In this document: positions 10,645 to 62,587 of the stretch, in pieces | Layout of the letters: each line of letters opens with the position of its first letter | Position numbering within the stretch: the stretch's first letter is position 1 | From: Planctomycetota bacterium | GTDB taxonomy: Bacteria > Planctomycetota > MHYJ01 > JACQXL01 | DNA length: 64,000 bases | Assembly: GCA_043801445.1 (NCBI GenBank) | Contig: JAZDMB010000012.1 | Location: forward strand, 714 to 64,713 | Direction: 5' to 3' | Translations under genes and position numbers: made by a program | The notes under the pieces: generated by a model | The model's database searches: none | Seen by the model: the letters and a program-made list of their open reading frames with translations, nothing else | Told to the model about the DNA's origin: nothing

Positions 10645-10705
10645 CCGACAAAACAAGAATATCTTGTTTAATCTGGCGGTGAAATCGAATGAGGTAAAGG
10701 ATGAT

Positions 10706-12055
10706 ATGAAGTCTTTTATTATCTTGTCTATTTTGATAATCTTTATAGTAGTGGCAGGCTATTTTATTATCAAGTGTTATCATCCTGACTCTTTGGTTTC
10801 GCCTCCTTCTAAGCAAGACAAACATACTATAGAAAAACATGTTACAGATAAGAGGGATTCTAATCAAACCAATATCCCCAAAAACATTGTAATAACATCT
10901 GATTTATCTAATCAAACAATAGCATCTGGTTCATCCTGCAGTTATACCACTGCAAAAGATAAGAACTACTCTGAACTTGCCGAACGGCTCCGGCAGACTG
11001 TTCCTGATTCCGAACGACCAGTGAAGATTAAAGAATTCATTCGCCAATTAAAAGAAGCAAAGGCACAATCACCACTATTCATTGGGGCGTGTGTTATGAT
11101 TCGCGCACTTGACGCTAAAGAAGCAATCCCTGAATTAATAAACCTTCTGGATGATGAAGACAAATGCTATATGGCCATGGTAACCCTTGGTGGGCTTGGC
11201 GCCAAAGAGGCAATCCCTAAAATAATAAACCTTCTGGATGATGAACGCGAAGGCCTTACAGCCACAAGAGTTCTTGGTGAACTCGGCGCCAAAGAGGCAA
11301 TTCCTAAATTAATGAATCTGCTGAATCATAAATATGAGGAAATGCGTGTGGCTGCTGTTCAAACTCTCAGCAAACTTGGCGCCAAAGAGGCAATCCCTGA
11401 ATTAACAAATCTGCTGAATGATGAAAGTGGTCAAGTGCGTCTGACTGCCGCTTGTGCTCTCGACAACCTCGGCGTCAGAGATGTAGCAATCCCTGAAATA
11501 ACAAAACTACTGAATGATGAAAGTATTTCAGTGCTACTGTCTGCCGCTTGCGCCCTCGGCGACCTTGGCGCCAAAGATGTAGCAATCACTGAACTAATAA
11601 AACTGCTGAAAACTGGAAAGCTCGCGCCGCCCGTCGCGTCCGTCTTCCGCGCATCCGCCGCTCGTTCACTCGGCAGATTTGACGCCAGAGAATCAATCCC
11701 GGAACTAATAAAACTACTGGATGATGAAGCTTGGGAGGTACGCCAGGCAGCTGGTGATGCACTCGGAGAACTTGATGATAAAGAGATAATCACTGACCCT
11801 AAACCAACGGAACCACTGAGAGATAAAGATTCTTTGTGGGCGTGTAAAATAGCATTGGCTATTAATCCCAAAGATGCCTTAGCTTATCTTTATATGGGAG
11901 TTATTTATCACGATAGATTCGATAACCCTTCCAAGGCAATTTTCTACTATACCAAATATCTGGAATTGGCGTCACCAGATGCACGTGAGCGTGAGGATGT
12001 GGATCGAGGGATTAAGGACTGCAACAAACGCATTAATCATTCTCGTTCTAAGTAA
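10706..12055 (+). CDS. membrane-anchored HEAT-repeat protein, paralog 2
   Basis: Colinear with 8139-9491: same N-terminal TM helix, same HEAT repeats, same C-terminal '...INPKDA.AYL.MG.IY......N.SKA.FYYT.YLELA.PDA.ER.DV.R.IKD......HSRSK'. The ATG at 10706 corresponds to 8139. Confidence 0.85.
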   Translation: MKSFIILSILIIFIVVAGYFIIKCYHPDSLVSPPSKQDKHTIEKHVTDKRDSNQTNIPKNIVITSDLSNQTIASGSSCSYTTAKDKNYSELAERLRQTVPDSERPVKIKEFIRQLKEAKAQSPLFIGACVMIRALDAKEAIPELINLLDDEDKCYMAMVTLGGLGAKEAIPKIINLLDDEREGLTATRVLGELGAKEAIPKLMNLLNHKYEEMRVAAVQTLSKLGAKEAIPELTNLLNDESGQVRLTAACALDNLGVRDVAIPEITKLLNDESISVLLSAACALGDLGAKDVAITELIKLLKTGKLAPPVASVFRASAARSLGRFDARESIPELIKLLDDEAWEVRQAAGDALGELDDKEIITDPKPTEPLRDKDSLWACKIALAINPKDALAYLYMGVIYHDRFDNPSKAIFYYTKYLELASPDAREREDVDRGIKDCNKRINHSRSK

Positions 12056-12142
12056 ATGATATCGGTGTACCTGCGACACACATCTGAACAAGCCAAAAAT
12101 ACCCAAAAACTAACGGGAAATTAATCAACAAAGGATGAATAA

Positions 12143-12437
12143 GTATCCCAAGGGATGACTGGCTTGTTCCAAGGGACGAAGGGTTTGTACTCAAGAACAG
12201 CTGAGTTGTACCAAGGAATAATTGGGCTGTTCCAAAGAACGAACGGTTTGTACTGAGGGACGAAGGGTTTGTACTGAAGAACGACTGAGTTGTACCAAGG
12301 AACAATTGGACTGTTCCAAGGAACGACCGGCTTGTACTGAAGAACGAACGCTGGTACTCAAGAACGAATGGCTTGTACTGAGGAACGAAGGGTTCATCCC
12401 TAGGGCTGAACGGTTTAGACTCAGGGATATCTGAGAT
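12143..12437 (+). repeat. 21-bp tandem repeat array 3 (about 14 units, with an 84-bp higher-order period)
   Basis: Units start at 12166, 12187, 12208, 12229, 12250, 12271, 12292, 12313, 12334 (a 20-bp unit), 12354, 12375, 12396 and 12417. A typical unit is GTACTGAAGAACGACTGAGTT. The 4-unit block 12187-12270 is repeated at 12271-12353. Confidence 0.9.
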
Positions 12438-12532: not shown

Positions 12533-12560
12533 TTGACACAGACTGTTTTTTGATTATAAT
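12533..12560 (+). promoter_or_regulatory. sigma70-like promoter candidate for 12783-14948
   Basis: TTGACA (12533-12538), 16-nt spacer, TATAAT (12555-12560). Implies a ~220-nt structured leader. Confidence 0.4.
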
Positions 12561-12782: not shown

Positions 12783-14948
12783 ATGATTAACATACTGAAA
12801 GGTATCAGCGGATTTATTATAATAGCCATCGTGATAGCATTGGGGTTCGGTATTGTCCGGGCAGTTCCGGTCGGTAAGGAAACGCCAAAGCAGGAGAAAG
12901 CTACACCGGTACAGAGCGAGACCAAAGAAAAAACACCTGCCCGACTGGACACCCAGTCAGGCGGGAAAGAGGAACAAACTCCCCGCGAAAAGGAAATATG
13001 GATTTATAAACTGATTCATAAACTGGAGACTTCGCAAGACCTGTGGGTCAAAGTGGAGGCGGTAAAAAAACTGGGCGAGTTAAAAGACCCCAAGGTAATC
13101 ACGGCACTTGCCAGAGCGCTCAATGACGAAAGTGTTGATATCTGTGTGGAAGCGCTGCGCGCCCTAAAGAAAATAGGCGATGCCGAATCGCTCAAACTAC
13201 TTATGACCGGCACCGTCATCTACGATATGCAGTCACTCCGTTTCTATGCCCTTGAAGCAGCCCTGGCTATCGACCCGGTAAAAACCCGGGAATTCCTTAA
13301 AGCCAATTTCAAAAGCGTATTTCCTAATGTCCGCAATAATGCCGCTGAATCACTGGCGAATCTGGTCACTCTCACCAATAAAAGAGACAAGGAATCTATC
13401 GAACAATTAGTGAGTCTTTTAAGCCATGAACCGAATAAAGACAATCGTGAAAAAATAGCAGAATCACTAAATCTCATTACTCAGGCTGAACTGACCTCTG
13501 CAGAACCCAAAGACTGGCAGGAGTGGTGGCACAAGAATAAAAAAACCATGAGCGAAAATATAAAAACCAAAGAAGTGATTACAGGGACGGAAAAACCGGA
13601 AACAAAACCGAGCCCTGAAAAAAAAGCCAAAGCCATTAAACAGAAAAAAGCGCAGGATGAATTTGATGCGTTCAAAGACAAGACAATCCTGGACAGAAAT
13701 CCCGACGACCCGACCAAATCCTATTTCGCAGGCCGTTCTGAGGAAGGTAAAACGCTCTCAGTAGCCGCATTTGCCAACGGTGACAGCCGCGTCCTGAAAC
13801 TGGTGGAAGACGCCCTTAACTGGCTGCAGCGTCACCAGGAAAAAGAAGGATTCTGGGACTATAACGGCTATGTTAAACACTGCCATTCCAGTCCGCCAGG
13901 GGCAGATATATCTCCGGCACAGGGTAACCCGCCGGAGGTGGGTCTGCCTCAGGCACAGGGCAGCAAGGAAAAAACTGCATCCGACAAGAAGAAGACTGCA
14001 TCCGATAAAACAGACGATACCACCGAGATTAAAGGTGATTATGACGTAGCCGTAACAGGCTTGGCATTACTGGCATTCCTCGGAGCCGGACATACTCATA
14101 TGCCGGGCCAGAAAGTCGGATTACCGGCCGGCGGAAAATATAAACCTACTGTAGAACGCGGACTGCACTGGCTGGTTTCCAATCAGAACGGCGACGGCAG
14201 TTTCCGCAATCCAGTCACAGGCGGTGTCGGCAACAAGGTCAATATGTTTGAACAGGCGATGGCAACACTGGCGATATCCGAGGCATACGGCATGACCGGC
14301 GACGAAACGCTGAAAGTCCCGGCGCAGAAGGCGATGAGCTTTATCAATTATGCCAAGAACCCGGGCAAGGGCTGGCGTTATACGCCTAATTGCAGCGATA
14401 ACGATACCTCTGTTGTCGGCTGGCAGGTCTTTGCACTGAAATCAGGCAAGGTTTCAGGTCTGGACATAAACCGCAACGATTTCGTTGACGCATCCAAATG
14501 GCTGGATGATATGACTAATTTAGAAACTGCCCGGGTCGGTTATAACAAAAAAGGAACCGGCTCTACTGCCATTACTTCTATCGGCATTATCTGCAAGATG
14601 CTTCTGGGCTGGCGTAATGATTCGCCCATTTTACAAAAGGGAGCGGAAATCGTCCTTAAGGATGACTCTTACCAGGGCGAGACACAGGATTTCTATCATA
14701 TCTACCAGACCTCTCTGGCGATGTTCCAGATGGGCGGACGCTACTGGGAAAACTGGAATAGCCAGATGACAAATTTCCTGGGTAATGCAGCCGTCAAAGA
14801 AGGCTGTGAACACGGCAGTTGGTCTGCCCGGATTGAGAAATGGTCTAAAAGCAGGGTTTACACCACAGCACTTGGCGCACTGTCGCTGGAAATCTATTAC
14901 CGATACCTGCCATTTGCCAGAACTGAAAAGTCAGAACAGCCGATGTAG
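12783..14948 (+). CDS. membrane-anchored HEAT-repeat / prenyltransferase-squalene-oxidase-repeat protein
   Basis: N-terminal TM helix. HEAT-like units follow (KVEAVKKLGELKDPKVITALARALNDESVDICVEALRALKKIG). The C-terminal half has terpenoid-cyclase-type repeats (QNGDGSF, GKGWRY, EHGSWS, LGALSLEIYYRY). SD AAAAGGAG. Contains two in-frame GC-rich elements. Confidence 0.85.
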   Translation: MINILKGISGFIIIAIVIALGFGIVRAVPVGKETPKQEKATPVQSETKEKTPARLDTQSGGKEEQTPREKEIWIYKLIHKLETSQDLWVKVEAVKKLGELKDPKVITALARALNDESVDICVEALRALKKIGDAESLKLLMTGTVIYDMQSLRFYALEAALAIDPVKTREFLKANFKSVFPNVRNNAAESLANLVTLTNKRDKESIEQLVSLLSHEPNKDNREKIAESLNLITQAELTSAEPKDWQEWWHKNKKTMSENIKTKEVITGTEKPETKPSPEKKAKAIKQKKAQDEFDAFKDKTILDRNPDDPTKSYFAGRSEEGKTLSVAAFANGDSRVLKLVEDALNWLQRHQEKEGFWDYNGYVKHCHSSPPGADISPAQGNPPEVGLPQAQGSKEKTASDKKKTASDKTDDTTEIKGDYDVAVTGLALLAFLGAGHTHMPGQKVGLPAGGKYKPTVERGLHWLVSNQNGDGSFRNPVTGGVGNKVNMFEQAMATLAISEAYGMTGDETLKVPAQKAMSFINYAKNPGKGWRYTPNCSDNDTSVVGWQVFALKSGKVSGLDINRNDFVDASKWLDDMTNLETARVGYNKKGTGSTAITSIGIICKMLLGWRNDSPILQKGAEIVLKDDSYQGETQDFYHIYQTSLAMFQMGGRYWENWNSQMTNFLGNAAVKEGCEHGSWSARIEKWSKSRVYTTALGALSLEIYYRYLPFARTEKSEQPM
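13927..14006 (+). repeat. GC-rich ~62-bp element, in frame inside CDS 12783-14948
   Basis: ACCCGCCGGAGGTGGGTCTGCCTCAGGCACAGGGCAGCAAGGAAAAAACTGCATCCGACAAGAAGAAGACTGCATCCGATA, translated as NPPEVGLPQAQGSKEKTASDKKKTASD. Confidence 0.8.
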
Positions 14949-14996: not shown

Positions 14997-15998
14997 TTAT
15001 CCCCTCAACACGACCACATCAAATGTATTATCCGCTATAGCCGGCTGGTTTAGTAAGATTGAAACACCTGTGCCTTGCGGTAACCCAGGTAACAGGAATA
15101 GTTGCCTGATTAACTGGTCTTGATTCGTGGGAATAGAGTAACCTAAAATCACACCGCCATTCAAATCCGGGTCTCCCAAAGGCGGATATAACCCGCCTAC
15201 TTGTAATGCTGGAATTGTGATGCTGACAATCTTATAACTTAATTTAGTTTTCGATACCGCGCCATCGGCAATTTCACCTGTTGCAACAGGAGGGACTAAC
15301 GGCCTCACCGCTCCACCCGGAACAAAAGACAATTTCTCCGGTGTTACTGCACCGTTACTAATCTTGGCGGTCTCTACTGCGTTCGTGGCAAGTTTAGCAG
15401 CAGTAACTGCGCTGGATGCAATCTTCTGAGCGATTATTGAAGCATCGGCAATCTCATCAGTCGCAACCGGTGGCGTTATCGGGCGGACAATAGACGGCGG
15501 AACAAAAGACAATTTCGCCGGAGTTACCGAGCCATTGGCTATCTTCTCCGTTGTAACCGCACCATTCGCTAACCGAGCACTGCTAACTGCCCCAGATGCA
15601 ATCTTCGCACTCGTTACTGCGCTGGTGGCAATCTTCTCGGTCGTTACTGCGCCATTGATTATCTTCTCGGTGATAACGGTATTCGGTTGTAGGTGAGCGG
15701 TGCTAATTGCGCCATTCGCTAGTCGCTCACCGCTAACCGCTCCAGGGGCAATCTTCAGTGTTGTTACTGCGCCGGTGGCGATTTTCTCAGTTGTGACACA
15801 TGCATCCTTTAACCGGGAACTGCTTACCTGTTTCTCGCCGATTTTATCACGGGTCACCGCTCCATTAGCAATCTTTTCGGTAGTTACACTTGCAACCTGT
15901 AACTTAGAACTTGAAACCTGCAACTCGCCTATTTTAGGCGCTGTCACCGCGCCGTTAGCAATATGCTCGGTCTTTACCTCATTCGGTAATAATGACAT
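14997..15998 (-). CDS. decapeptide-repeat (fibre-like) protein of unknown function, cassette copy 1 gene B
   Basis: About 19 units of 'T(E/D)KIA.GAVT'-type 10-residue repeats, then a C-terminal domain nearly identical to that of 61733-62587. No signal peptide. Confidence 0.8.
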   Translation of the reverse strand: MSLLPNEVKTEHIANGAVTAPKIGELQVSSSKLQVASVTTEKIANGAVTRDKIGEKQVSSSRLKDACVTTEKIATGAVTTLKIAPGAVSGERLANGAISTAHLQPNTVITEKIINGAVTTEKIATSAVTSAKIASGAVSSARLANGAVTTEKIANGSVTPAKLSFVPPSIVRPITPPVATDEIADASIIAQKIASSAVTAAKLATNAVETAKISNGAVTPEKLSFVPGGAVRPLVPPVATGEIADGAVSKTKLSYKIVSITIPALQVGGLYPPLGDPDLNGGVILGYSIPTNQDQLIRQLFLLPGLPQGTGVSILLNQPAIADNTFDVVVLRG

Positions 15999-16010
15999 AA
16001 TATACCTTTC

Positions 16011-16058
16011 AAATCCCCCTCTTCTCCCCCTTTGATAAAGGGGGATGAAGGGGGATTT
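16011..16058 (-). terminator. conserved two-tier G5/C5 hairpin between cassette genes A and B (copy 1)
   Basis: AAATCCCCC-N-CCCCCTTTG..CAAAGGGGG-N-GGGGGATTT. Flanked by an A-tract and a T-tract. Confidence 0.5.
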
Positions 16059-16073
16059 ATCTATTCGTTTTAA

Positions 16074-16733
16074 CTATGGACTGACCGTGCATTTGGCGGT
16101 TTCGCTGAACGGACCCGTGCGTATCTTCTTATCAAACCACTGCGCCCGGTATTCCACATTAGTCGGCTCGGTTATTGCCAGATTGTGTAAATAGGGGCTG
16201 TTGGTGTCATCCGCCACGAATGTCCACGGCCCGCTTTCTATCCGATACGAGATTCTTGCACCGGCAATGTCAGCCGGCTTGGCATTGCGTTTCTCATTGG
16301 ACGGGTTAACGCCGAAATGAACCGTCACCTGTCCGCGCTGTTTCCAGTCCAGAATCAGGTTAGGTGGCGCCAGATTCAGCACATAGTCCGGCGGAATCGG
16401 GGTCGGTTCCCTATCCGGCACGGTAATTGCCAGAATTTCGCGGTTTGCGTCGGTCATCCCCGGATGTTTCTGGAGCATCCCTGCCACAGCCCTGACCGCA
16501 TCTTTAGCAGCATCACGCAATTCATCCTTGTTTTCTGCGGCTGATTGGGCGGTATTTTGTGCCGTCTGGAGCGCCACATAACCAATCAGCCAATCATCAT
16601 AGGCATCGGTTACTGCGGTAATCAAAGCCGGGGCAATCCCCAGCGGAGTCGCAATCACACTGATATTAGTGCTGAAATTACGAAGCCATTCGTCAAACTG
16701 GGCGTCCACCCTTGGTATATAATCTCTTGCCAT
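16074..16733 (-). CDS. hypothetical protein (helical N-terminal half, beta-rich C-terminal half), cassette copy 1 gene A
   Basis: Paralog of 60939-61613 (YIP..DA.F..W..NF..., ...DTNSPY.HN..., ...AQWFD...R.GPF). Strong SD AGGAGGTGAAAT before the ATG. Confidence 0.8.
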   Translation of the reverse strand: MARDYIPRVDAQFDEWLRNFSTNISVIATPLGIAPALITAVTDAYDDWLIGYVALQTAQNTAQSAAENKDELRDAAKDAVRAVAGMLQKHPGMTDANREILAITVPDREPTPIPPDYVLNLAPPNLILDWKQRGQVTVHFGVNPSNEKRNAKPADIAGARISYRIESGPWTFVADDTNSPYLHNLAITEPTNVEYRAQWFDKKIRTGPFSETAKCTVSP

Positions 16734-16796: not shown

Positions 16797-17076
16797 CTGA
16801 AACAAACCGGTCGTTGCTCTCTACGAACCGGTCGTTGCCCTCTACGAACCGTTGTTGTCATCTACGAACCGGTCGTTGCCTTCTACGAACTAGTCGTTGC
16901 CCTCTACGAACCAGTCGTCGCTCTCTACGAACCGGTCGTTGCTTTCTACGAACCGGTCGTTGCCCTCTACGAAACATCGTTGCCTTCTACAAACCGGTCG
17001 TTGCCCTCTACGAATCCCTTGTCGCTCTCTACGAACGAGTTGTCGCCCTCTACGAACTTCTCGTAGCTCTCTACAA
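16797..17076 (-). repeat. 21-bp tandem repeat array 1 (about 13 units), upstream of cassette copy 1
   Basis: The plus-strand unit is CTACGAACCGGTCGTTGCCCT (gene orientation TCGTAGAGGGCAACGACCGGT). Two units are 20 bp, which shifts every reading frame. Confidence 0.9.
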
Positions 17077-17089
17077 ATCACCTCCTTTC
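17077..17089 (-). promoter_or_regulatory. 13-nt complement of the 16S rRNA 3' tail (GAAAGGAGGTGAT) at the head of array 1
   Basis: The minus strand reads GGAAAGGAGGTGATTTGTAG, the same motif and TTG as at 60533-60549, but here the TTG is followed immediately by TAG. Confidence 0.6.
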
Positions 17090-20319: not shown

Positions 20320-20372
20320 ATTGAATCGCAATAAGTATATCTAAGATTCTACCGATATCATATAATTAATCT
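20320..20372 (-). promoter_or_regulatory. 53-bp duplicated upstream region, copy at the histidine-kinase gene
   Basis: ATTGAATCGCAATAAGTATATCTAAGATTCTACCGATATCATATAATTAATCT differs at 3 positions from 21358-21410. The minus strand contains TAGAAT. Confidence 0.4.
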
Positions 20373-20374
20373 TT

Positions 20375-20656
20375 TTATCTTACGCCGTTGACTTTAGCAC
20401 GACAATCTTCAACTACTTCTTTGGGAATCATCTTTAAGGCGATTATAATAAGCATCGGCACAATAACCAAATCATCAAGTTGGCCAAATATCGGGATGAA
20501 ATCCGGAATAATATCAAAGGGAAGAAAGATATAGCCCAGAGCCAGCCAAAGAAATATCTTCGCACGCATTGGTGTCCGTTTGTCTTTCAGGACCAGCCGG
20601 TAAACATGGATTTCTTGTTTCAGTCGCTTTACCGCAGATTTCCATTTACTAATCAT
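20375..20656 (-). CDS. DUF1232 (YkvA-like) small membrane protein
   Basis: Characteristic 'PFDIIPDFIPIFGQLDDL' motif and two hydrophobic helices. Confidence 0.75.
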   Translation of the reverse strand: MISKWKSAVKRLKQEIHVYRLVLKDKRTPMRAKIFLWLALGYIFLPFDIIPDFIPIFGQLDDLVIVPMLIIIALKMIPKEVVEDCRAKVNGVR

Positions 20657-21342: not shown

Positions 21343-21357
21343 AGTTGGGTTCTCCAA

Positions 21358-21410
21358 TTGAATCGCAATAGGTATATCTAAGATTCTACCAGTATCATAT
21401 AATTAATCCT
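21358..21410 (-). promoter_or_regulatory. 53-bp duplicated upstream region, copy at the response-regulator gene
   Basis: The minus strand reads ...TTAATTATATGATACTGGTAGAATCTTAGATATACCTATTGCGATTCAAT, with an extended -10-like TGGTAGAAT. Confidence 0.4.
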
Positions 21411-21412
21411 TT

Positions 21413-21456: not shown

Positions 21457-21640
21457 CTGTAACCTACTATTTTCTTCATATTCAAGATGGTTTTATCTTA
21501 AAATCGCCCTCTAATAGTTTGGATATTTTGTTCTCGCAGGACACATAACACTTCTCAAATTATGTTTGTAATCCCTCCACTTCGTTACGGGATAACTGGC
21601 TGTCCCTACGGGACTCCTGCGGTCGTAACGACCGGAGTTT

Positions 21641-24072: not shown

Positions 24073-25539
24073 TTAATTACTCGTTTTTTCAAATGCCCTT
24101 GCTACGCATAAGATAGTTGATTCATCAAAAGGCTTGCCTAATATTTGTAAACCAATAGGAAGATTATTTTTGGTCATGCCATCCCGACTTTCATCGGAAT
24201 TCACCGCTCCACACGGTATAGAAATACCGGGTATGCCGGCGAGATTAGCCGTTACTGTAAAAATATCACAGAGATACATCTTTAACGGGTCATCTATTTT
24301 TTCGCCTATTTTAAATGGAGAAATCGGTGAGGTTGGTCCCATAATCACATCAACCTTTTTAAATGCCTCATCAAAATCCTGCCTTATCAACCTCCGGATT
24401 TTCAAGGCTCTCAGATAATATGCGTCATAATAACCGCTTGAAAGTGCAAATGTGCCTAATAAGATACGTCTTTTTACCTCTTTCCCAAAACCTTCACTGC
24501 GGCTCTTGCTTATCATATCCCTCAATCCCTGATAATCTTTTGCCTGAGAGGTAAAATGGGTGCCATCATACCGCGCCAGATTGGAAGACGCCTCTGATGG
24601 CGCAACTAAATAATATGTAGCAATACCATACCGGGAATGAGGAAGCGATATATCCATTATTTTTAATCCCATCTTCTCGTATGACTTTATTGCCTGATAA
24701 ACGCTTTCTTTAATCCCAGATTCTATTCCTTCAGAGAAATATTCTTTTGGAACACCAATCCTCAGACCCTTGATATCATTATTAATCTCCGTCAGATATT
24801 CAGGGACAGAAGTATTGATTGATGTAGAGTCCTGGTTATCATAACCGGCGATTGTTTGTAAGAGAAGCGCGCAATCTGAAACATTCCCAGTCAGCGGTCC
24901 TATCTGGTCTAATGATGAAGCAAAAGCAATCAACCCATATCGTGAAATAAGCCCGTAGGTTGGTTTGAGCCCGACAATCCCGCAGAACGAGGCAGGTTGC
25001 CTGATAGAACCGCCTGTATCCGAGCCGAGAGCCATAAATGCCATATCAGAAGCAATCGCTGCAGCAGAACCACCGGACGAACCACCAGGCACACGAGATA
25101 AATCGTGAGGATTATGGGTCGGTCCAAACGCAGAATTCTCGCAGGATGAACCCATTGCAAATTCATCCATATTAGTCTTACCAATAATAATACCATCTTC
25201 CTGTTTAATCCGTTTTATTACATAGGCATCGTAAGGAGGTATAAAATCTTTTAGTATTTTAGAAGCACATGTAGTTTTAATGCCATCGGTACAGATATTA
25301 TCCTTAATAGCAATCGGGATACCGGCAAGTAAACCGAGTTTTTGAGACTTTGCTATTTTCTCGTCTATTGCTTTTGCTTGCAGTAATGCCAAATCTTTAG
25401 TCAGCGTTAGATATGCCTTTATTTGCGGTTCAACCGATTCAATATGACTGAATAAATTTTCTACAACCTCTTTTGCCGTAACCTTCTTCTGTGTAATGAG
25501 GTTTTTGATTTCTAAAGCAGTCTGCTTGTATAGTTCCAT
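24073..25539 (-). CDS. gatA: Asp/Glu-tRNA amidotransferase subunit A
   Basis: Amidase signature [10 protein letters not shown]...[12 protein letters not shown]; length 488 aa. Confidence 0.93.
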
Positions 25540-25546
25540 TATTTAT

Positions 25547-25604
25547 TGTATGGAATTTCAAAGTTAGCCACGAAGACACAAAGAATTCTTAGTGTCTTTG
25601 TGGC
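25547..25604 (+). repeat. ~60-bp repeat with CACAAAG-word hairpin, copy 1 (downstream of radC)
   Basis: TGTATGGAATTTCAAAGTTAGCCACGAAGACACAAAGAATTCTTAGTGTCTTTGTGGC. Confidence 0.85.
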
Positions 25605-26339: not shown

Positions 26340-26397
26340 ATGAATAATTCGTATAGCATATCTTATGGATACTCGCCATTATTTTATAATAATTAAT

Positions 26398-26464
26398 CGT
26401 ATGGAATTTCAAAGTATAGCCACCAAGGCACGAAGGCACAAAGAATTCTTAGTGTCTTTGTGGC
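26398..26464 (+). repeat. ~60-bp repeat with CACAAAG-word hairpin, copy 2 (upstream of radC)
   Basis: CGTATGGAATTTCAAAGTATAGCCACCAAGGCACGAAGGCACAAAGAATTCTTAGTGTCTTTGTGGC. Same orientation as copy 1. Confidence 0.85.
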
Positions 26465-26533: not shown

Positions 26534-27271
26534 ATGAAAACATTAGATTTCTTATTAACACTTGCTACATTTATCACCTTTGTAATAGCCGTATATATAT
26601 TTTCCACTGACCCAACAATTACTAAATCAATTAACTGGGCAGAAGACAGAGTTCCCCAAAACGAAGCGCTGATTAAATCGCAAACCCAAAATATTACTTC
26701 GACGGTCACCACATCACCCAATGCATTATTGAAACAGGGAAACTCTTCTCTTCCGCCAAAGGCGGATCTGCCGAAGGCACAGGGAAGCAAGGAAAAGACT
26801 GCATCCGACAATAAAGATTATCCACCTAATCCTGCATGGAAGTATATTGTTATTCACCATAGCGCCACTAAACAAGGAAATGCCCGTATCTTTGATAATT
26901 ATCATCGTAAAGAAAAAGGTATGAAAGAAGGTTTGGCTTATCATTTTGTAATTGGTAACGGAACAAAATCTAAAGACGGCGAGATTGAGATTGGCAATAG
27001 ATGGAAAAAACAAATCGCTGGTGAGCACTGCTGGAATACCAAAATGAATCAAGAATCTATTGGTATCTGCCTGGTTGGTAATTTTGATGAATCGAAACCT
27101 ACCCCAAAACAGATAGAATCACTTATCAATCTAATAAGTAATCTACAGAAACAATATCACACACCTTCGGAAATGATTTTATCACACAAAGATGTGGATA
27201 AGAAACGAACGGACTGTCCCGGTAAATATTTTCCTGCGAAGGAAATAAAATCACGCCTTAATTCCTTTTAG
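26534..27271 (+). CDS. membrane-anchored N-acetylmuramoyl-L-alanine amidase (Amidase_2/PGRP fold)
   Basis: TM helix, a linker containing a GC-rich element, then 'IVIHHSAT......YH....G..GLAYHFVIGNG....GEIE.G.RW......H......N..SIGICLVGNF......P...Q...L..L...L......I..H.D.....TDCPG..FP'. Confidence 0.88.
   Translation: MKTLDFLLTLATFITFVIAVYIFSTDPTITKSINWAEDRVPQNEALIKSQTQNITSTVTTSPNALLKQGNSSLPPKADLPKAQGSKEKTASDNKDYPPNPAWKYIVIHHSATKQGNARIFDNYHRKEKGMKEGLAYHFVIGNGTKSKDGEIEIGNRWKKQIAGEHCWNTKMNQESIGICLVGNFDESKPTPKQIESLINLISNLQKQYHTPSEMILSHKDVDKKRTDCPGKYFPAKEIKSRLNSF
26748..26810 (+). repeat. GC-rich ~62-bp element, in frame inside the amidase CDS
   Basis: CTCTTCCGCCAAAGGCGGATCTGCCGAAGGCACAGGGAAGCAAGGAAAAGACTGCATCCGACA, translated as LPPKADLPKAQGSKEKTASD. 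Confidence 0.8.
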
Positions 27272-30188: not shown

Positions 30189-30211
30189 TCTTCTTTCTCT
30201 TTCCGATAACT

Positions 30212-30273
30212 TCTTCCCGCCAGAGGCGGGTCTGCCTATGGCACAGGAGAGCAATAAAAAGACTGCATCCGAT
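30212..30273 (+). repeat. GC-rich ~62-bp element, intergenic compact copy
   Basis: CTTCCCGCCAGAGGCGGGTCTGCCTATGGCACAGGAGAGCAATAAAAAGACTGCATCCGATA, between folE and the glycosyltransferase gene. Confidence 0.8.
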
Positions 30274-30348
30274 AATCTTTATTAGCGTTTCTCAACAATA
30301 GTTATAATTTTACAATATTATTAAATTTACTACAAAATATAAGTAATA

Positions 30349-47590: not shown

Positions 47591-50572
47591 TTATTTATTT
47601 TGAGAATTATCGCTTGGCAATTCCTTTTTTATTTTCTCTATATTTTGTTTAGCTTGTTGCGCAGCCGGAGTTTCCCCGTATTTCTGGATTATTTGCTGAT
47701 AAAGCCAAAGCGCCATATTTAATTGTTTCTCTTTCAAGTAGCCATCAGCAACTACCATCACTTTTTCGGATTTTTGTTTATCATCGGAAACCTTTGCCTG
47801 CTGGGTTTCCGTTTTTATCGTCTGGATAATATTCTTAGCGCGCTCGGAGTATTCAGTATCCTTATACAAATTGACAATACTCTGAAACATTTTTAATGTC
47901 TTATCATATAAGGAAAAGTCTCTCATTATCCGTGCGGTTGACAATGAATCAAAAGCGTTTTGAACGCTTTCTTTAGCCTTATTTTCTAATGCATTTAATT
48001 TATCTTGAACTGCAGGAACATCATTAGGCTTTTTGTTCGACCCGGATGTAATCAAACGATATAATTTTATAGCTTCACCAAAGTTATTATTTCTCTCTGC
48101 TTCCTCAGCTTTACTCAATATCCGCTCCCAATCAGTTTGACCTGGTATTGTTGATTGCAACCCAAATTCTATCTCAAAACTTAAAGGATTCTTGGTCTTG
48201 GATGAAGGTAACGCCTTCTCGTCTTTAGGTGCCACTGCTGATGGTTGAAAAGAGTGAGCAAAATACAGCATATCTGAATCACGTGTAATCACAATGTCTA
48301 CCGGTTGTGAATATTTCAAGATAGCAATATTACTGATTAATCCGAGGTCCATTTCAGTTATCATTTTTTCACTAATCTTCTCATATAAAGATTTTTCTAT
48401 GGTTTCTCCGGCAGTGTTTAATAATCTTACATATTTTACATCTCCTATTGGCAATGAACAAACCAAGGAAAAATGTTTAGCCATAAGGGAATTATAAAGA
48501 TTAGAAGGGAAATTGTAATTTATCCCAAGTGCCGGACTGATATACGATTCCATTGAAATGTCCATTACATCCAAGGAACCCGGGTGAACTATCTGGTTTG
48601 TAAGATTAATATTCTCATTTTGCGTATGGCTTACTATTTTCCCGAGACCATAAAAACTCTGGCGTGATTCTGTGTTCTCAGGCTTAAAAACCAATTCGCC
48701 TTTCAAGTGCATTAAACGCTCTGTATCCTGTAATCTCCAGATACCTGAAGGAGCAATCGTAAGTTTATATGATTGATTAGTTAAAGTTAACTTGTCTGTT
48801 ATTATTTGAGGCAATACCCTATCCGAATAGATTTGTAATAATGAAATGTTATCGAAATAAACTTTGGCGTTTGCTCCTAAAACTACACAAGAAACCCTGA
48901 GATATTCAGTCTCTAAGGTAGGTTTAGTATTTATCTTGCAATAACGCCACTCATTAGAACTCGATATAAAATCAGAGTAATCCTCCCTAATCACTTGATA
49001 CTCATCATCAAGCCAGGTAATCTTATAGCCTGATAACGATTTCTTAAACTGGTCTGATTTTATCCATCCGCCAAAATTATATATTTCGCTAGGATTAGTT
49101 TTTGCTTTTGCCGGCACTCTGAAAATGGAATTATAGGTTAACTCGGTATAGAATTCCTTGCTATTATCCTTTTCTATCATAAGTGAATGCTGGCCATCCT
49201 GATATTCCCTATCGGTAACGATTGCTTTAATAGTGCTATCTGAAAGAGGCTGCCAGCCATTGGGGAACATTGCCGGACGACTGAATTGTTCAAACGATGC
49301 CCCATCCGCAACAAGATTCACCTTTTGATTCATCCCTTCTTTCATCTTGATATAACCATACACCAATATTGCACCGCTTATCAATATTATAATAGCGGCT
49401 TTTGATAATAACGCGAAAATATTTCTGTAAGGAGTACTGATAAATTCCTCAGCCGGTGATGATGCGTAAATTACCATCGGCTTTTCCTTAACCAATTCTT
49501 TCCCGAAGATTATTACGGCATCACCGATTTCTATCTCATCGCCGATTTCCAATTTCCTCTCTTTAATTCTGTTATCATGGAAATAGATACCGTTATGGCT
49601 GTCTAAATCAACGATAACATAACCATCAGGAGTTTTTCTTATCTGGGCATGCGAACGCGAAACACCTTTATCGTCTAAAACCACCTCATTTTTCTTGTCC
49701 CGCCCGATTGAAATGACATCCTTGTCCAATTGAAGTGTTTTGGTTGCATCACCTTCTTTTATAATTATTTGTGCCTCGGAAGTTGAAACCGGTCTTTCTT
49801 CGAGTTTCTCTTTACCTTTCTCTTTCTCTAATTCTTTCCCAAAGATAATTGTCGCCTTACCGATTTTTATCTCATCGCCGATTTCCAATTTTCTCTCTTT
49901 AATTCTGCTATCATGGAAATAGATACCGTTATGGCTATCCAAATCAACGATAACATAACCATCAGGAGTTTTTCTTATCTGGGCATGTACACGCGACACA
50001 CCTTTATCCTCTAAAACAGCCTCGTTTTTGCTGCTCCGCCCGATGGATATGCTATCCTTATCCAATTTAATTGTTTTAGAAGAAGTGCCTTCTTTTATGA
50101 TTATTTGTGCCACAGGACCAGGACCCGAAGATGGCTGTCCGTCACCACTCGGCTGTTCTTCGCCCTTACGGGACTGCTCCGCCGCCGCCTGTGGCGAGCC
50201 TAGCCCATCGGGGCTGGAAGATAGTCCGTCAGGAATGCCACTCTGCCGCTCCGGAACAGCGGAGGATGACTTTCCTTCGGCTGTCTCCGAGCCTTTCTCA
50301 AAGATAATTGTCGCCTTACCGATTTTTATTTCATCGCCGGCTTCTAATTTCCTTTCCTTAATCTTGTTATCATGAAAATAGATGCCATCAGGACTATCCA
50401 AATCAACGATAACGTAACCATCAATAGTTTTTATTATCCGGGCGTGGACATCCGAAACACCGCTATCTCCCAAAACCACTTCATTTTTGCTGTCTCGCCC
50501 GATTGAAATGACATCCTTATCCAGTTGAAGTGTTTTGGTTGCGTCACCTTCTTTTATAATTATCTGTGCCAT
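47591..50572 (-). CDS. triple-FHA-domain transmembrane protein with periplasmic jelly-roll-like and TPR-like regions
   Basis: Three ~95-aa near-identical FHA units ('AQIIIKEG...K...L.KD.ISIGR..KNE.VL.D.GVSR.HA.I.KT.DGYVIVDLDS.NGIYFHD..IKERKLE.GDEI.IG.A.IIF'). One TM helix. The C-terminal ~570 aa is extracytoplasmic. Start is uncertain (ATG 50572 or TTG 50587; neither has an SD). Confidence 0.85.
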   Translation of the reverse strand: MAQIIIKEGDATKTLQLDKDVISIGRDSKNEVVLGDSGVSDVHARIIKTIDGYVIVDLDSPDGIYFHDNKIKERKLEAGDEIKIGKATIIFEKGSETAEGKSSSAVPERQSGIPDGLSSSPDGLGSPQAAAEQSRKGEEQPSGDGQPSSGPGPVAQIIIKEGTSSKTIKLDKDSISIGRSSKNEAVLEDKGVSRVHAQIRKTPDGYVIVDLDSHNGIYFHDSRIKERKLEIGDEIKIGKATIIFGKELEKEKGKEKLEERPVSTSEAQIIIKEGDATKTLQLDKDVISIGRDKKNEVVLDDKGVSRSHAQIRKTPDGYVIVDLDSHNGIYFHDNRIKERKLEIGDEIEIGDAVIIFGKELVKEKPMVIYASSPAEEFISTPYRNIFALLSKAAIIILISGAILVYGYIKMKEGMNQKVNLVADGASFEQFSRPAMFPNGWQPLSDSTIKAIVTDREYQDGQHSLMIEKDNSKEFYTELTYNSIFRVPAKAKTNPSEIYNFGGWIKSDQFKKSLSGYKITWLDDEYQVIREDYSDFISSSNEWRYCKINTKPTLETEYLRVSCVVLGANAKVYFDNISLLQIYSDRVLPQIITDKLTLTNQSYKLTIAPSGIWRLQDTERLMHLKGELVFKPENTESRQSFYGLGKIVSHTQNENINLTNQIVHPGSLDVMDISMESYISPALGINYNFPSNLYNSLMAKHFSLVCSLPIGDVKYVRLLNTAGETIEKSLYEKISEKMITEMDLGLISNIAILKYSQPVDIVITRDSDMLYFAHSFQPSAVAPKDEKALPSSKTKNPLSFEIEFGLQSTIPGQTDWERILSKAEEAERNNNFGEAIKLYRLITSGSNKKPNDVPAVQDKLNALENKAKESVQNAFDSLSTARIMRDFSLYDKTLKMFQSIVNLYKDTEYSERAKNIIQTIKTETQQAKVSDDKQKSEKVMVVADGYLKEKQLNMALWLYQQIIQKYGETPAAQQAKQNIEKIKKELPSDNSQNK

Positions 50573-51766: not shown

Positions 51767-51856
51767 AACACGAATGGCACGAATGCGACGAATAGCACGA
51801 ATATTAAAATATAATCTCTTATTCGTGAGATTCGTTTTATTCGTGTGATTCGTGTT
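51767..51856. repeat. CACGAAT-word long hairpin element (empty)
   Basis: AACACGAATGGCACGAATGCGACGAATAGCACGAAT ... ATTCGTGAGATTCGTTTTATTCGTGTGATTCGTGTT. The termini are shared with the copy at 1144-1241. Confidence 0.85.
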
Positions 51857-51876: not shown

Positions 51877-52803
51877 ATGACCAAATTAAAGATATGGGCT
51901 AAGGCAATCCGGGCGCCTTTTTATACAGCCACCATTATCCCTATCGTCTTGGGCGCGGTTATCGGCTGGTCTGAAATCGGCATCTTCCACTGGGGCTATT
52001 TCCTGCTAGCTTTTATCGGCGGCATTCTCATCCATACCGGTGTCAATTTAGGCAACGACTATTTTGACCACGTCTCGCGTAACGATTGGAACAACCAAAC
52101 CCCGACCCCATTTTCCGGAGGCAGCCGCTTTATCCAGAATAATATACTCAAACCATACCAATACCTGGTCGCCTCGCTGATTTGCTTCGCATCAGGCTCC
52201 CTAATCGGACTATATCTTAACTATGTTCTGGCTGGAAATATGATACTTTATCTCGGAATCATCGGCGTATTCCTCGGATTCTTCTACACTGCCACGCCTA
52301 TAAAGATTGGCTACAGAGGATTCGGGCTGGGTGAATTAGCCGTCGGCTTAGGATTCGGTCCGATAATGGTTTTAGGCAGTTATTATGTCCAGACCCAGCA
52401 TCTATCACTAATCCCGTTATTGGCATCCATACCGGTAATGATTCTGATTGCCTTAGTCGTCTATATAAACGAATTCCCGGATTATGAAGCGGATAAATCG
52501 GTCAACAAAATAACCATCCCGGTAATGTTAGGCAAAGAAAGAGCATCCTACATATTTTACGGATTACTTCTGACAACCTATTTGTATACGACAATATTTG
52601 TTATCCTGGGCATATTCCCGTTATTTGCATTAATCACCCTATTAACACTGCCATTAGCCATAAAAGCCATCAAGGTAACCGAAGCGAATAAAGACAAGGT
52701 ATACGAATTACTCCCGGCCAACGCATCAACTATTATGACCCATTTTGCCTTTGGCGCCTGCCTTATCATTGCCTATATCATAGATAAATTAGTTTTATTA
52801 TAA
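51877..52803 (+). CDS. UbiA-family prenyltransferase, MenA-like (1,4-dihydroxy-2-naphthoate prenyltransferase)
   Basis: 8-9 TM helices, first Asp-rich motif 'NLGNDYFD', second 'N.FPDYEAD'. The MenA versus other UbiA subfamily call is inference. Confidence 0.75.
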   Translation: MTKLKIWAKAIRAPFYTATIIPIVLGAVIGWSEIGIFHWGYFLLAFIGGILIHTGVNLGNDYFDHVSRNDWNNQTPTPFSGGSRFIQNNILKPYQYLVASLICFASGSLIGLYLNYVLAGNMILYLGIIGVFLGFFYTATPIKIGYRGFGLGELAVGLGFGPIMVLGSYYVQTQHLSLIPLLASIPVMILIALVVYINEFPDYEADKSVNKITIPVMLGKERASYIFYGLLLTTYLYTTIFVILGIFPLFALITLLTLPLAIKAIKVTEANKDKVYELLPANASTIMTHFAFGACLIIAYIIDKLVLL

Positions 52804-60390: not shown

Positions 60391-60420
60391 AGCCAGTAGG
60401 AACGAAGTGACGTACTGGCT
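60391..60420 (+). terminator. hairpin immediately after the TonB-receptor stop codon
   Basis: AGCCAGTA-N14-TACTGGCT (8-bp stem). No clear U-tract. Confidence 0.3.
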
Positions 60421-60444
60421 CTTATCCCGATGAGTCCCAGAGGG

Positions 60445-60540
60445 ACGACATCGGGGTTAGAACCGGTTTGAGCGTGGCGACATCGGGGTTAGAACCGATT
60501 TGAACGTAGCGACATCAGAGCTAGACCCGGTTAGAAAGGA
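60445..60540 (+). repeat. three tandem 32-bp repeats
   Basis: ACGACATCGGGGTTAGAACCGGTTTGAGCGTG / GCGACATCGGGGTTAGAACCGATTTGAACGTA / GCGACATCAGAGCTAGACCCGGTTAGAAAGGA. The third unit runs into the SD-like motif. Confidence 0.85.
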
Positions 60541-60546
60541 GGTGAT
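60532..60546 (+). promoter_or_regulatory. 15-nt complement of the 16S rRNA 3' tail (TAGAAAGGAGGTGAT) at the head of array 2
   Basis: Perfect complement of a Bacillus-type 16S 3' end ...AUCACCUCCUUUCUA. Followed by TTG at 60547. Confidence 0.6.
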
Positions 60547-60557
60547 TTGATACAAAG

Positions 60558-60725
60558 GGCAGGGAAGGTTTTTCAGACGTCTGGAATAGTTTTCCAGATA
60601 TCTGGAACAGTTTCCCATATGTCTGGAATTATTTTCCAGATGTCTGGAATGATTTCCCAGATGTCTAGAATAGTTTTCCAGATGTATGGGAAAGTTTTCT
60701 GGATGTTCGTGAAAGTCCTACGAAT
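60558..60725 (+). repeat. 21-bp tandem repeat array 2 (8 units), upstream of cassette copy 2
   Basis: Units fall exactly at 60558, 60579, 60600, 60621, 60642, 60663, 60684 and 60705. The consensus GTCTGGAATAGTTTTCCAGAT carries the internal dyad TCTGGAA-N5-TTCCAGA. Confidence 0.9.
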
Positions 60726-60938
60726 GTCCATAACCCCGATGGTTATCGGGATAAGAGGTTGTCCCTAACGGGACTCCCTGCGGTCGTAACGACCATAGGT
60801 CTAACAGCCTCTAATGCTATACAATATAAGGACTTAGAAGCCCCGATGTCGCTGACGCTCATCGGGATAAGACCCAGTAACGCCCTTACCCGATTAGCAT
60901 CGGGTAATTGCTAACTGGCTCTAAAAAGGAGATGTAAG

Positions 60939-61613
60939 ATGGGAAAAAATTATATACCGACAACAGACGCTGATTTTGAGCTCTGGCAGGTGAATTTTGT
61001 GACCAAGGTAGTGGCAACCCCAGCCGCTTATGGGCTTTTGCCGGCTGATGTGATTGATGTCGGAATTGATTCAACTGACTGGCAGACGGCTCTGGCGGCA
61101 TTAGTTGTCGCCCAAAACGCGGCTAAAGGCGCGGCTGAGACTAAGGATGAAGCCCGCGATACCCTGGAATCAGAGGTCCGCAGTTTAGCCAAAAGGATTC
61201 AAGCCAGACCAGCCACGACCGATGCCCAGAGAGAAGAATTGGGTATTACCGTGCCTGACCTGACCCGGACGCCGCTTTCGGAGCAGATTGTCCTGACCAC
61301 GCCGCCGCCGATAGTTGAAGCCAAGTGCACCGGCGCCAAAACCGTCCGGATTGACTGGTATCCAACTCAGGCCCCCGGAGAAAGCGAGGCATTACCCCAG
61401 GGCATTAACGGCGTGTCTATTTTCTACGCCGAAGGCGGGATTCCCAGCGATGAGAGTCAATGGCGTTTCTTAGCACTGGATACCAATTCGCCCTATGTCC
61501 ATAATGTTGCCAATGATGCTACCGTTACCGTGGCATATAAGGCGCAATGGTTTGACCGGCGTAAGCGGTTGGGACCGTTCGGCAATCCGGTAGTCGTGGC
61601 TGTAACCGCGTAA
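60939..61613 (+). CDS. hypothetical protein, cassette copy 2 gene A
   Basis: Paralog of 16074-16733. SD AAAAGGAG. Confidence 0.8.
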   Translation: MGKNYIPTTDADFELWQVNFVTKVVATPAAYGLLPADVIDVGIDSTDWQTALAALVVAQNAAKGAAETKDEARDTLESEVRSLAKRIQARPATTDAQREELGITVPDLTRTPLSEQIVLTTPPPIVEAKCTGAKTVRIDWYPTQAPGESEALPQGINGVSIFYAEGGIPSDESQWRFLALDTNSPYVHNVANDATVTVAYKAQWFDRRKRLGPFGNPVVVAVTA

Positions 61614-61732: not shown

Positions 61733-62587
61733 ATGCCATTGAAACCGAATGAAGTAAAGACCGAGCATATTGCTGACCGCGCAGTGATAACATCAAAGAT
61801 TGCGCCTCTGTCAGTAGGCAGTAGTCAGTTGGCACCGGGTAGTGTAATTACGGAGAAGATTGCAGATGCGTCAGTGACCCGTGATAAAATCGGAGATGCA
61901 CAGGTGACCGGCTCTCGCCTGCGGGATGCCAGTATCACCACTCCGAAAATCGCTAATAATGCCATCACCACAGATAAAATCGGCGTTGGGCAGGTGACCG
62001 GCGCCAAGATGGCAGACAAGACGATAACTGCAGAGAAGATTGCCACCAGCGCGGTGACCACATCCAAAATCGGAGAGTTACAAGTCACGCAAGCCAAGTT
62101 GCAGGATGCCAGTGTCAGCACGCCGAAAATAGCCAATAATGCTGTGACAACACAGAAGATTGTCCTTGGGGCGGTTAACGGTGAGCGGTTAGCGAATGGC
62201 GCAGTTAGCACCGAGAAAATAGTCAATGGCGCAGTGACGCCTGAGAAATTGTCGTTTGTGCCGGGCGGAGCGGTGAGACCATTAGTCCCGCCGGTGGCTA
62301 CAGGTGAAATAGCAGATGGCGCGGTGACGAAATCTAAATTGAGTTATAAAGTTATTAGCATCACAATTTCAGCCCAACAAGTAGGCGGGTTATATCCTCC
62401 TTTAGGAGACCCTGATTTGGATGGCGGTGTGATTTTGGGTTACTCTATACCCACAAATCAAGACCAGTTAATTAGGCAACTGTTCCTGTTACCGGGGTTA
62501 CCGCAAGGCACCGGTGTTTCAATCTTGCTTAACCAGCCAGCTATAGCGGATAATACATTTGATGTGGTGGTACTAAAAAGTTTATAG
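61733..62587 (+). CDS. decapeptide-repeat (fibre-like) protein, cassette copy 2 gene B
   Basis: About 15 units of 10-residue repeats ('TEKIADASVT RDKIGDAQVT GSRLRDASIT TPKIANNAIT ...'), then a C-terminal domain nearly identical to that of 14997-15998. Confidence 0.8.
   Translation: MPLKPNEVKTEHIADRAVITSKIAPLSVGSSQLAPGSVITEKIADASVTRDKIGDAQVTGSRLRDASITTPKIANNAITTDKIGVGQVTGAKMADKTITAEKIATSAVTTSKIGELQVTQAKLQDASVSTPKIANNAVTTQKIVLGAVNGERLANGAVSTEKIVNGAVTPEKLSFVPGGAVRPLVPPVATGEIADGAVTKSKLSYKVISITISAQQVGGLYPPLGDPDLDGGVILGYSIPTNQDQLIRQLFLLPGLPQGTGVSILLNQPAIADNTFDVVVLKSL

Follow-up and report, generated by a model that had tools for sequence, protein, structure and literature searches.

Why should a bacterial gene be preceded by a string of eight 21-bp palindromes, and why should a second copy of that gene in the same stretch of DNA be preceded by a string of the same period but of unrelated sequence? 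These questions are raised by a 64,000-nucleotide stretch from a Planctomycetota bacterium (assembly GCA_043801445.1, contig JAZDMB010000012.1, positions 714 to 64,713 of the forward strand), referred to here as the window. The array under study, array 2, lies at 60558-60725 (+) upstream of copy 2 of a gene that we call gene A, which is followed by a second gene, gene B, and array 1 holds the same relative position at the other copy of the gene pair. An original prediction, made by a model from the letters alone, held that period and architecture are conserved without conservation of sequence, and that each array might be read by its own cassette-specific factor or form its own string of RNA hairpins. 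We find that arrays of this period accompany nearly all relatives of gene A and that their units follow a common palindromic plan, and we tentatively read the array as the main body of a transcribed gene A leader.

Period-21 arrays precede gene A in many phyla

A gene A profile was searched against species-representative genomes, which yielded 48 loci in Planctomycetota/Brocadiia, Stahlbacteria, WOR-3, Elusimicrobia, KSB1, Sumerlaeota, Verrucomicrobiota and further groups, the highest number of gene A copies in one metagenome-assembled genome (MAG) being about ten. Arrays were counted at the 35 of these 48 loci that included the gene start and enough upstream sequence; in 34 of them, Tandem Repeats Finder (TRF) reported a period-21 array whose end lies 24-300 nt upstream of gene A. 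An independent scan of metagenome contigs detected a period-21 array at 62 of 66 loci and a period of 42 at one more. These counts bear out the original prediction: period and position stay the same from locus to locus, and nearly every array has a unit sequence of its own. A lack of arrays at other copies was not what we found, as 96 of 101 gene A relatives, sampled across at least eight bacterial phyla, have a period-21 array immediately upstream. Individual loci fetched from MAGs and metagenomes are denoted below as L001, L002 and so on.

The arrays always share the strand of gene A, which begins 21-327 nt (median 97) after their end, and they contain 3-14 copies of the unit (median 8.7). 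Exactly 21 nt were measured for 672 of 699 units and 20 or 22 nt for the remainder; the only other periods were two 22-nt arrays (the second half of the L015 array and possibly L023) and super-periods of 42 and 63. Among distant members of the gene A family, a period-21 array was present at two of the three that were looked up. That an array persists at about 95% of loci, although its sequence is exchanged from one sister species to the next, is a strong sign of function. An Rfam search of the window gave no family at gathering score and only sub-threshold look-alikes of microRNA precursors, and nothing describing 21-bp repeat arrays of this kind was found in the literature. The element, a fast-changing string of palindromes before one uncharacterised protein family, is apparently undescribed.

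The units share a palindromic plan with covarying arms

The consensus units of 93 non-redundant arrays were rotated to a common register, which gave a profile of 8.8 bits compared with 5.25 ± 0.10 for shuffled units and revealed a shared core, GAA-N(G)N-TTC, at unit positions 6-14. The unit plan in these 93 arrays consists of an 8-nt arm, a 3-nt centre, a complementary 8-nt arm and a 2-nt linker. The eight symmetric pairs of this plan (8-12 out to 1-19) are Watson-Crick in 62% of the arrays, as against 16-28% after sliding by 1-3 positions. Six of the eight pairs (all except 8-12 and 6-14) exceeded column shuffles with z = 4.9-7.6, several of them showing all four pair types in quantity. A pair count on 50 units, which were chosen by hand and are hence biased towards good cores, gave 75% of cells paired versus 56 ± 1.9, 96 double-sided changes versus 39.6 ± 5.7 and a covariation score of 0.54 versus 0.23 ± 0.025.

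Many arrays alternate two or three compensated subtypes, such as GGTAT..ATACC with GGGAT..ATCCC in L001, and an analysis of hairpins on consensus units only therefore under-counts the palindromes; 202 hairpins were counted versus 115 ± 12 in column-permuted arrays. These compensatory changes support base pairs, but a DNA palindrome would account for them as well, and the arrays are interrelated. With units that form small palindromes and arms that covary from array to array, the RNA hairpin string proposed in the original prediction is a reasonable reading. The units are also asymmetric between strands: G occupies the centre in 67 arrays and C in 10 (28 versus 3 among the best cores), and the sense strand is purine-rich with a GC skew of +0.10.

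Array 2 and its immediate surroundings

Array 2 comprises 168 bp and follows a variant plan with 7-nt arms and a 5-nt centre. As predicted, it consists of eight exactly phased 21-bp units without any indel in the register from 60558, each an imperfect palindrome of the type TCTGGAA-N5-TTCCAGA plus a 2-nt linker. TRF called it at 60568-60706 with a period of 21, 6.6 copies, 79% matches, 0% indels and a score of 159. Units 2-6 are close to GTCTGGAATAGTTTTCCAGAT, while unit 1 (60558) and units 7 and 8 (60684 and 60705) are degenerate. The 7-bp inverted repeat TCTGGAA/TTCCAGA had been predicted in each unit; it is perfect in units 2 and 4 only and carries one or two mismatches in units 3, 5 and 6, whereas unit 7 retains pairing mostly through G-T and unit 8 has another, compensated stem, TTCGT/ACGAA. 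A GGA triplet, likewise predicted for every unit, occurs in six of the eight and is missing from units 6 and 8. Array 2 matches the family profile at P<0.002, and on either strand the folding of its region exceeds that of shuffles by far (z = -7.2 and -6.7).

Downstream of the array, a post-array stem at 60713-60835 (+) is formed by the arms AAGTCCT (60713-60719) and AGGACTT (60829-60835). The same arms, with variable loops, are present in L003, L031, L052, L056, L057, L058 and L092, which thus form a leader subfamily; at cassette 2 the loop contains an insertion that resembles a repetitive extragenic palindromic (REP) element. The Shine-Dalgarno (SD) sequence of gene A copy 2, AAGGAG, follows at 60926-60931 (+), 7 nt before the ATG at 60939.

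The cassette-2 leader is crowded with CCCGATG...CATCGGG hairpins resembling REP elements or miniature inverted-repeat transposable elements (MITEs), which occupy 60413-60536, 60726-60828 and 60840-60912 and include a 32-bp unit repeated 2.8 times. Compared with L003, L056 and L058, this leader has two such insertions extra, one of them inside the loop of the post-array stem, and one of the segments recurs at 21584-21633 with 88.7% identity. Head and array are further bracketed by a perfect 15-nt inverted repeat (60383-60397/60914-60928) and a 95% identical 22-nt one (60413-60434/60858-60879); the outer pair links a TonB-receptor gene, at its stop codon, with the edge of the gene A ribosome-binding site. 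Possible explanations for these bracketing repeats are a local RNA stem of long range, a segment that can invert and a side effect of REP-like insertion.

Unit sequences turn over independently of gene A

Gene A copies that are 90-94% identical have units that resemble each other only at chance level, as seen for L016/L017, L010/L011, L033/L034 and window copy 2/L001. L033/L034 and L010/L011 are syntenic, with flanks of 92-95% DNA identity; in both pairs, the homology breaks off at the leader and returns 14-30 nt before the start codon. Array 2 itself is similar to the arrays at L002 and L058, where gene A is only 78% and 67% identical, and L050, whose gene A is 94% identical to window copy 2, has an L001-type unit. 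In another pair, 1087-1315 of L088 and 389-574 of L089 are 98.6% identical from mid-array through gene A and unrelated upstream, and a recombination or rearrangement breakpoint therefore lies inside the array. Co-variation of the array with gene A, which had been put forward as a check, was rejected on the basis of these near-identical genes with unrelated arrays and similar arrays with 67-78% identical genes.

The same conclusion was reached for gene A at the level of its domains. The N-terminal domain diverges faster than the C-terminal fibronectin type III (FN3) domain, with 45% versus 87% identity between copy 2 and L003 (residues 1-95 versus 96-224), and 14 of the 15 differences between copy 2 and the 94% identical L050 fall within the first 76 residues. 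This N-terminal divergence shows no correspondence to array type. Arrays 1 and 2 of the window illustrate how the unit sequences relate to one another. Their consensus units match at 9 of 21 positions at the best rotation, which is the chance level (null mean 9.2), yet they score 9.5 and 14.3 bits on a leave-one-out profile where shuffles score about 0-2 ± 2.8. The two arrays are therefore unrelated pairwise but belong to one family, so that the predicted lack of relation holds for the pairwise comparison and not for the common profile. The proposed cassette-specific factor was not supported, given the absence of co-variation with gene A, the common core, an acidic gene A product and the position of gene B outside the conserved unit. 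The common core GAA-N(G)N-TTC points instead to one common reader, if there is any reader.

A 16S-complementary motif heads arrays 1 and 2

The head motif of array 2, GAAAGGAGGTGATTTG, lies at 60534-60549 (+) and contains 13 bases complementary to the canonical 16S rRNA 3' end. With up to two mismatches allowed, only two matches occur in the window (0.03 expected), at 60534-60549 (+) and 17074-17089 (-), and each heads an array; AGGAGGTGAT is likewise confined to the two array heads. The 13-nt complement is GAAAGGAGGTGAT, for which the canonical 16S sequence was assumed, as no rRNA was found in the window. Among the fetched loci, AAGGAGGTGATTTG is present in nine, every time on the gene A strand, and lies at most about 90 nt upstream of the array in eight of these and about 950 nt upstream in L100. 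The exact motif is limited to Planctomycetota-type loci, and other loci have a different GGAGG-containing head or none.

The original prediction had described the motif as followed by TTG. The motif is real at both array heads, but the TTG opens no conserved frame: in array 1 it is directly followed by TAG, and in L002, L003, L027 and L029 the frame ends after 2-12 codons, so that it spans 1-12 codons in these five arrays. Longer open reading frames (ORFs) follow in other arrays, including array 2, L008, L014, L017 and L028. Because 13 bases complement the canonical 16S 3' end, we read the head motif as a putative decoy ribosome-binding site resembling STAB-SD. The STAB-SD of Bacillus thuringiensis cry3A is a 5' mRNA stabiliser with an SD-like sequence that complements the 16S 3' end and does not serve initiation (PMC4113751). 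Elements of this type occupy the untranslated leader, where bound 30S subunits stop exonucleases from degrading the mRNA 5'-3'. Both are SD-like sequences far upstream of the real start, complementary to the 16S 3' end and placed at the head of a long leader, which in the case of cry3A belongs to a protein made in large amounts. The head motif differs in preceding a tandem stem-loop array and in the phyla in which it is found. It shares the 16S complementarity that is one of the defining features of STAB-SD, and the analogy covers the head only.

A transcribed leader as the favoured reading

We tentatively favour, as plausible though not quite probable, a reading in which the array forms the main body of a transcribed gene A leader, with a decoy SD head followed by a string of stem-loops acting on the mRNA. 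Such a leader would open with an exposed, over-long SD-like sequence that serves as a decoy 30S binding site in the manner of STAB-SD. A string of near-identical 19-nt stem-loops, 2 nt apart, would come next, each presenting the apex GAA-N(G)N-UUC above a lower stem that is free to change as long as it stays paired, and the true gene A ribosome-binding site would come last. The structured, purine-rich leader may protect the gene A mRNA from 5' decay and Rho, and the stem-loop string would probably also act as a multivalent platform for a factor that reads the apex and sets gene A output. The reading presumes transcription through the array, ribosome binding to the head and an effect on stability or translation, and it takes up what is observed of the arrays directly, namely their anatomy, conservation, covariation, strand asymmetry and non-coding nature.

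Several features argue for a leader. Of 99 arrays, 14 lie no more than 45 nt from the gene and several only 24-35 nt, a distance that fits an SD sequence and not a promoter with a 5' untranslated region, and the array therefore lies inside the transcript at those loci. In L030, a near-consensus promoter, TTGACA-17-TATCAT, ends at the first unit. Array 1 begins 13 nt downstream of a co-directional gene's stop codon, and the interval contains no terminator. The head motif, a conserved complement of 16S rRNA on the sense strand that opens no conserved frame, would make sense only as RNA, and what is kept in the arms is pairing and not sequence. Finally, the preference for a central G over C (67 versus 10) is not imposable by a symmetric DNA-binding dimer.

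Other observations weigh against a leader. Palindromes are only weak in about a third of the arrays. Strong sigma-70-like sites lie between array and gene at L009, L012 and a third, orphan array of the window; the placement of sigma-70 promoters was found to be inconsistent overall, with candidates upstream in five loci and downstream in three. A string of hairpins does not require a strict 21-nt period, although this could be inherited. Positions 9-11 are complementary in 40 of 93 arrays versus 28 expected, with the centres CGG and AGT dominating, so that the palindrome often reaches the central base, which a hairpin does not need. G·U and A·C mismatches occur at 59:43 in consensus units and 435:328 in all units (array-level P=0.18), and predicted RNA stability is equal on the sense and antisense strands. 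Paired changes are known to arise by template switching in quasi-palindromes (PMC7202029). This process could itself keep the arms complementary, and covariation therefore says less about selected pairing here than it would for an RNA present in one copy.

Alternative explanations

The main rival to a transcribed leader is a DNA operator or iteron array, which we consider a real but doubtful possibility, the mismatches showing no G·U signature that would decide between the two. The units would be tandem palindromic operators two helical turns apart, on which dimers of a protein encoded elsewhere align on one face and cover the whole region, so that gene A is silenced or activated or the DNA is organised like a plasmid centromere. 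The nearly invariant period, the near-perfect odd palindromes with their conserved GAA-N3-TTC centre, the lack of a clear G·U excess, the equal folding of both strands and the promoter-like sites on either side of the arrays are all in keeping with this. A protein of fixed specificity, however, leaves the complementary but variable outer arms unexplained, a symmetric dimer is blind to G versus C at the dyad, and the head motif is given no role. Among the gene families recurring next to gene A at the fetched loci, there is no conserved DNA-binding or regulatory gene beside the arrays, and gene A itself encodes an acidic, FN3-like product.

Two known DNA systems have comparable geometry. ARG boxes, the sites of ArgR/AhrC, are 18-bp palindromes 2-3 bp apart with a centre-to-centre distance of 21 bp. 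They share with the array units a palindrome of 18-19 bp that, together with a linker of 2-3 bp, makes two helical turns, and a GAA...TTC theme in the half-sites. They differ in having six bases between GAA and TTC where the array units have three, and in occurring in twos with conserved sequence and no covarying arms, whereas array units come in runs of 8-14. The partition centromere sopC of plasmid F has 12 units of 43 bp, in each of which lies a 7-bp inverted repeat. Like sopC and iterons, the arrays are tandem direct repeats that each hold an inverted repeat, have a locus-specific sequence and lie directly upstream of their own genes. In contrast, the gene A arrays are chromosomal, occur in many copies per genome and have a period of 21 rather than 43, a common core and a strand-asymmetric centre. 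No Rep, ParA/ParB or ParR gene was found beside the arrays at the fetched loci, where gene A is the sole conserved neighbour.

A self-perpetuating variable-number tandem repeat (VNTR) or contingency locus is an unlikely explanation. Slippage, unequal exchange and template switching would keep the arms complementary without selection for pairing, and copy number, if anything, would matter by tuning or phase-varying a fast-evolving gene. This would account for the unrelated units of syntenic orthologues, the homology breakpoint within the L088/L089 array, the range of copy numbers and the fast divergence of the adjacent gene A N-terminal domain, and some arrays are indeed mosaic in unit types (L010, L015, L020 and L049). 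The paired changes are of the kind that template switching makes, and the near equality of G·U and A·C is what mismatches free of selection should show. Neutral arrays should nevertheless vanish, and these are retained at nearly all loci in many phyla and in distant family members; the common core and the strand-specific central G are conserved amid change, as are orientation and head motif.

An effect of DNA shape, or a switch in which a promoter segment inverts between inverted repeats, is very improbable. A period of 21 does add bends coherently (end-to-end ratio 0.86 versus 0.94 for period 20 and 0.90 for period 22), but real units are not more curved than shuffled ones (0.863 versus 0.824, P=0.22, as predicted from wedge parameters), and intrinsic curvature was rejected on this ground. 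The bracketing repeats of array 2 would suit a switch; they are, however, made of local REP-like elements and particular to this locus, bracketing repeats being no feature of the family (mean 7.2 nt versus 7.0 in shuffles over 77 loci), and an inverton was likewise rejected.

The original prediction had also raised, as a weak idea, a sponge of the CsrB/RsmZ type in which GGA in repeated hairpins titrates a CsrA/RsmA-like protein. The arrays do resemble these RNAs in having many repeated short hairpins in one RNA with potential for multivalent protein binding, and GGA occurs 0.77 times per consensus unit versus 0.44 in shuffles, because many cores read GGAA. Such a sponge is nonetheless hardly credible: 31 of 93 consensus units lack GGA, as do the two units of array 2 named above; in array 2 and in GGAA cores, the triplet sits in the stem and not in the loop; and the arrays are gene leaders, whereas the known sponges are free-standing small RNAs with GGA in their loops. 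A suggested search for csrA found none in the window, which is uninformative for the whole genome.

A further alternative, to which we assign almost no weight and which is close to refuted, is that the array encodes a heptad-repeat peptide, for example a repetitive precursor of a ribosomally synthesised and post-translationally modified peptide (RiPP). A 73-codon ORF with a TTG start and the heptad SGIVFQM does run through array 2 at 60547-60768 (+), the period is divisible by three, a strong SD and TTG precede array-spanning ORFs in array 2, L008, L014, L017 and L028, a radical S-adenosylmethionine (SAM) gene follows gene A in L005, and a RiPP_TigB match was obtained (E 0.007). Against this, the RiPP_TigB match is low-complexity noise (16 bits versus a cutoff of 70), unit differences show no third-position bias across arrays (P=0.30), all three sense frames are stopped in 7 of 38 arrays while antisense frames are equally open, the head-motif start yields the few codons described above in five arrays, units contain one-nucleotide indels, and palindromic covariation constrains nucleic acid and not protein. 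Given the missing period-3 bias, the stopped frames and the inconsistent starts, we judge the 73-codon ORF to be incidental and not a gene.

Relation to known repeat families

CRISPR repeats as well as REP elements and bacterial interspersed mosaic elements (BIMEs) resemble the arrays in being short, partly palindromic repeats with stems that covary between families. The array units differ in being contiguous without spacers, private to one locus and tied to one protein family. Neither the Pfam domains in the ten ORFs that surround the window arrays nor the gene families recurring beside gene A included a cas gene. STAB-SD apart, the element thus fails at least one defining feature of each established family tested, be it cognate genes, GGA loops, spacers or dispersal.

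That the element, rather than being one more tandem-repeat cis-regulatory leader or operator, forms a distinct new class is a real possibility, albeit one on the unlikely side. In the form that we consider, with similar reserve, the class would be a gene-family-specific, multi-copy stem-loop array in RNA or single-stranded DNA, the apex GAA-N(G)N-UUC of which is read by some factor. Its stems would be remade far faster than the flanking DNA, and it would stand before thousands of FN3-family members in many mostly uncultured phyla. Such arrays could be part of a self-contained recognition or regulation system, or could serve mutually exclusive or phase-variable expression of paralogous copies.

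The gene A family is large, is without a Pfam, NCBIfam or PHROG model and belongs to phyla with almost no experimental genetics. The fixed 21-nt frame, the common apex and the covarying arms make the array a precise and testable object. If it acts as RNA, it is a widespread structured leader that was overlooked by motif surveys because no two copies align; if it acts as DNA, it is an unusually long, phased operator array. In either case, it provides a handle on the control of a rapidly evolving protein family and a case study in the concerted evolution of palindromic repeats.

Genes A and B and their setting

Gene A copy 2 (60939-61613, +) encodes 224 residues with an N-terminal long-helix domain and a C-terminal FN3 domain, and gene B copy 2 (61733-62587, +) encodes 284 residues with phage-tail-fibre-like repeats and a conserved C-terminal domain. 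Copy 1 of the pair occupies 14997-16733 on the minus strand, with gene A at 16074-16733 (219 residues) and gene B at 14997-15998 (333 residues). The paralogues in the window are 41% identical for gene A and 61% for gene B, and each pair follows an array. Gene A had no match in Pfam, NCBIfam or PHROG, and exact-protein look-ups with the window gene A copies and P0071 gave no match. A profile search of 1.8 billion cluster representatives placed 4,846 representatives at 50% identity in the family. In an AlphaFold model of gene A (mean predicted local distance difference test score 86), a 55-residue helix forms the basis of the N-terminal domain, and the C-terminal domain is a beta-sandwich that matches FN3 domains in PDB and in viral models. 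The product is usually acidic, with an isoelectric point of about 5. The acidity and the FN3 fold make gene A a poor candidate binder of the array, and we consider it unlikely in this role.

The neighbours in the window are ordinary chromosomal genes, including a TonB-dependent receptor, a PHO4 transporter with PhoU and an aminotransferase, and the best matches are to Planctomycetota MAGs. No gene A relatives were found in the viral contigs of IMG/VR, and a viral origin was rejected on this basis. Gene B accompanies gene A in Planctomycetota-type loci only. Elsewhere, unrelated genes lie 3' of gene A, among them those for an acetyltransferase, a prenyltransferase, a kinase and a radical-SAM enzyme; what is conserved as a module is thus the array with gene A and not an A-B cassette. 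The last ~100 codons of gene B are 87.5% identical in DNA between the two copies (15010-15360 versus 62220-62571), while the remainder is far more diverged and differs in repeat number, which suggests gene conversion between the cassettes at the C-terminal part of gene B.

Other arrays and repeats in the window

TRF reported three period-21 arrays in the window, at 60568-60706, 16805-17057 and 12164-12394. Array 1, including its head motif, spans 16805-17089 (-) and contains about 13 units of CGTAGAGGGCAACGACCGGTT, three of them 20 nt long. The orphan array 3 (12161-12394, +) has about 11 units of GGTTTGTACCAAGGAACGAAT and fits the family profile; it carries a degenerate head, AAAGGATGAATAAG, and its unit type is like that of the L027 array, the gene A of L027 being the nearest relative of window gene A copy 1. 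Neither gene A nor a gene A remnant was found downstream of array 3, which is followed by a perfect TTGACA-16-TATAAT at 12533-12560 and by a HEAT-repeat gene.

HEAT-repeat genes also account for a large recent duplication, 7783-9501 versus 10335-12065, with 82% DNA identity. A paired 9-bp array of about four copies of CACGAATAG followed by about four of the inverted ATTCGTGTG occurs twice (1142-1245 and 51767-51856), directly upstream of the genes at 1254-4751 and 51877-52803, and looks like a shared regulatory site; the L017 leader contains CACAGAT/ATCTGTG and ATTCGTG runs similar to these arrays. Long tandem repeats that stay in frame within large ORFs occupy 5100-6498 (291 bp x 4.8) and 49494-50111 (336 bp x 1.8). 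Short dispersed intergenic repeats of 56-76 bp with 83-93% identity were identified at 13929-13990, 26753-26814 and 30210-30276, and further members of this set pair 20320-20375 with 21357-21412 and 25538-25604 with 26389-26464.

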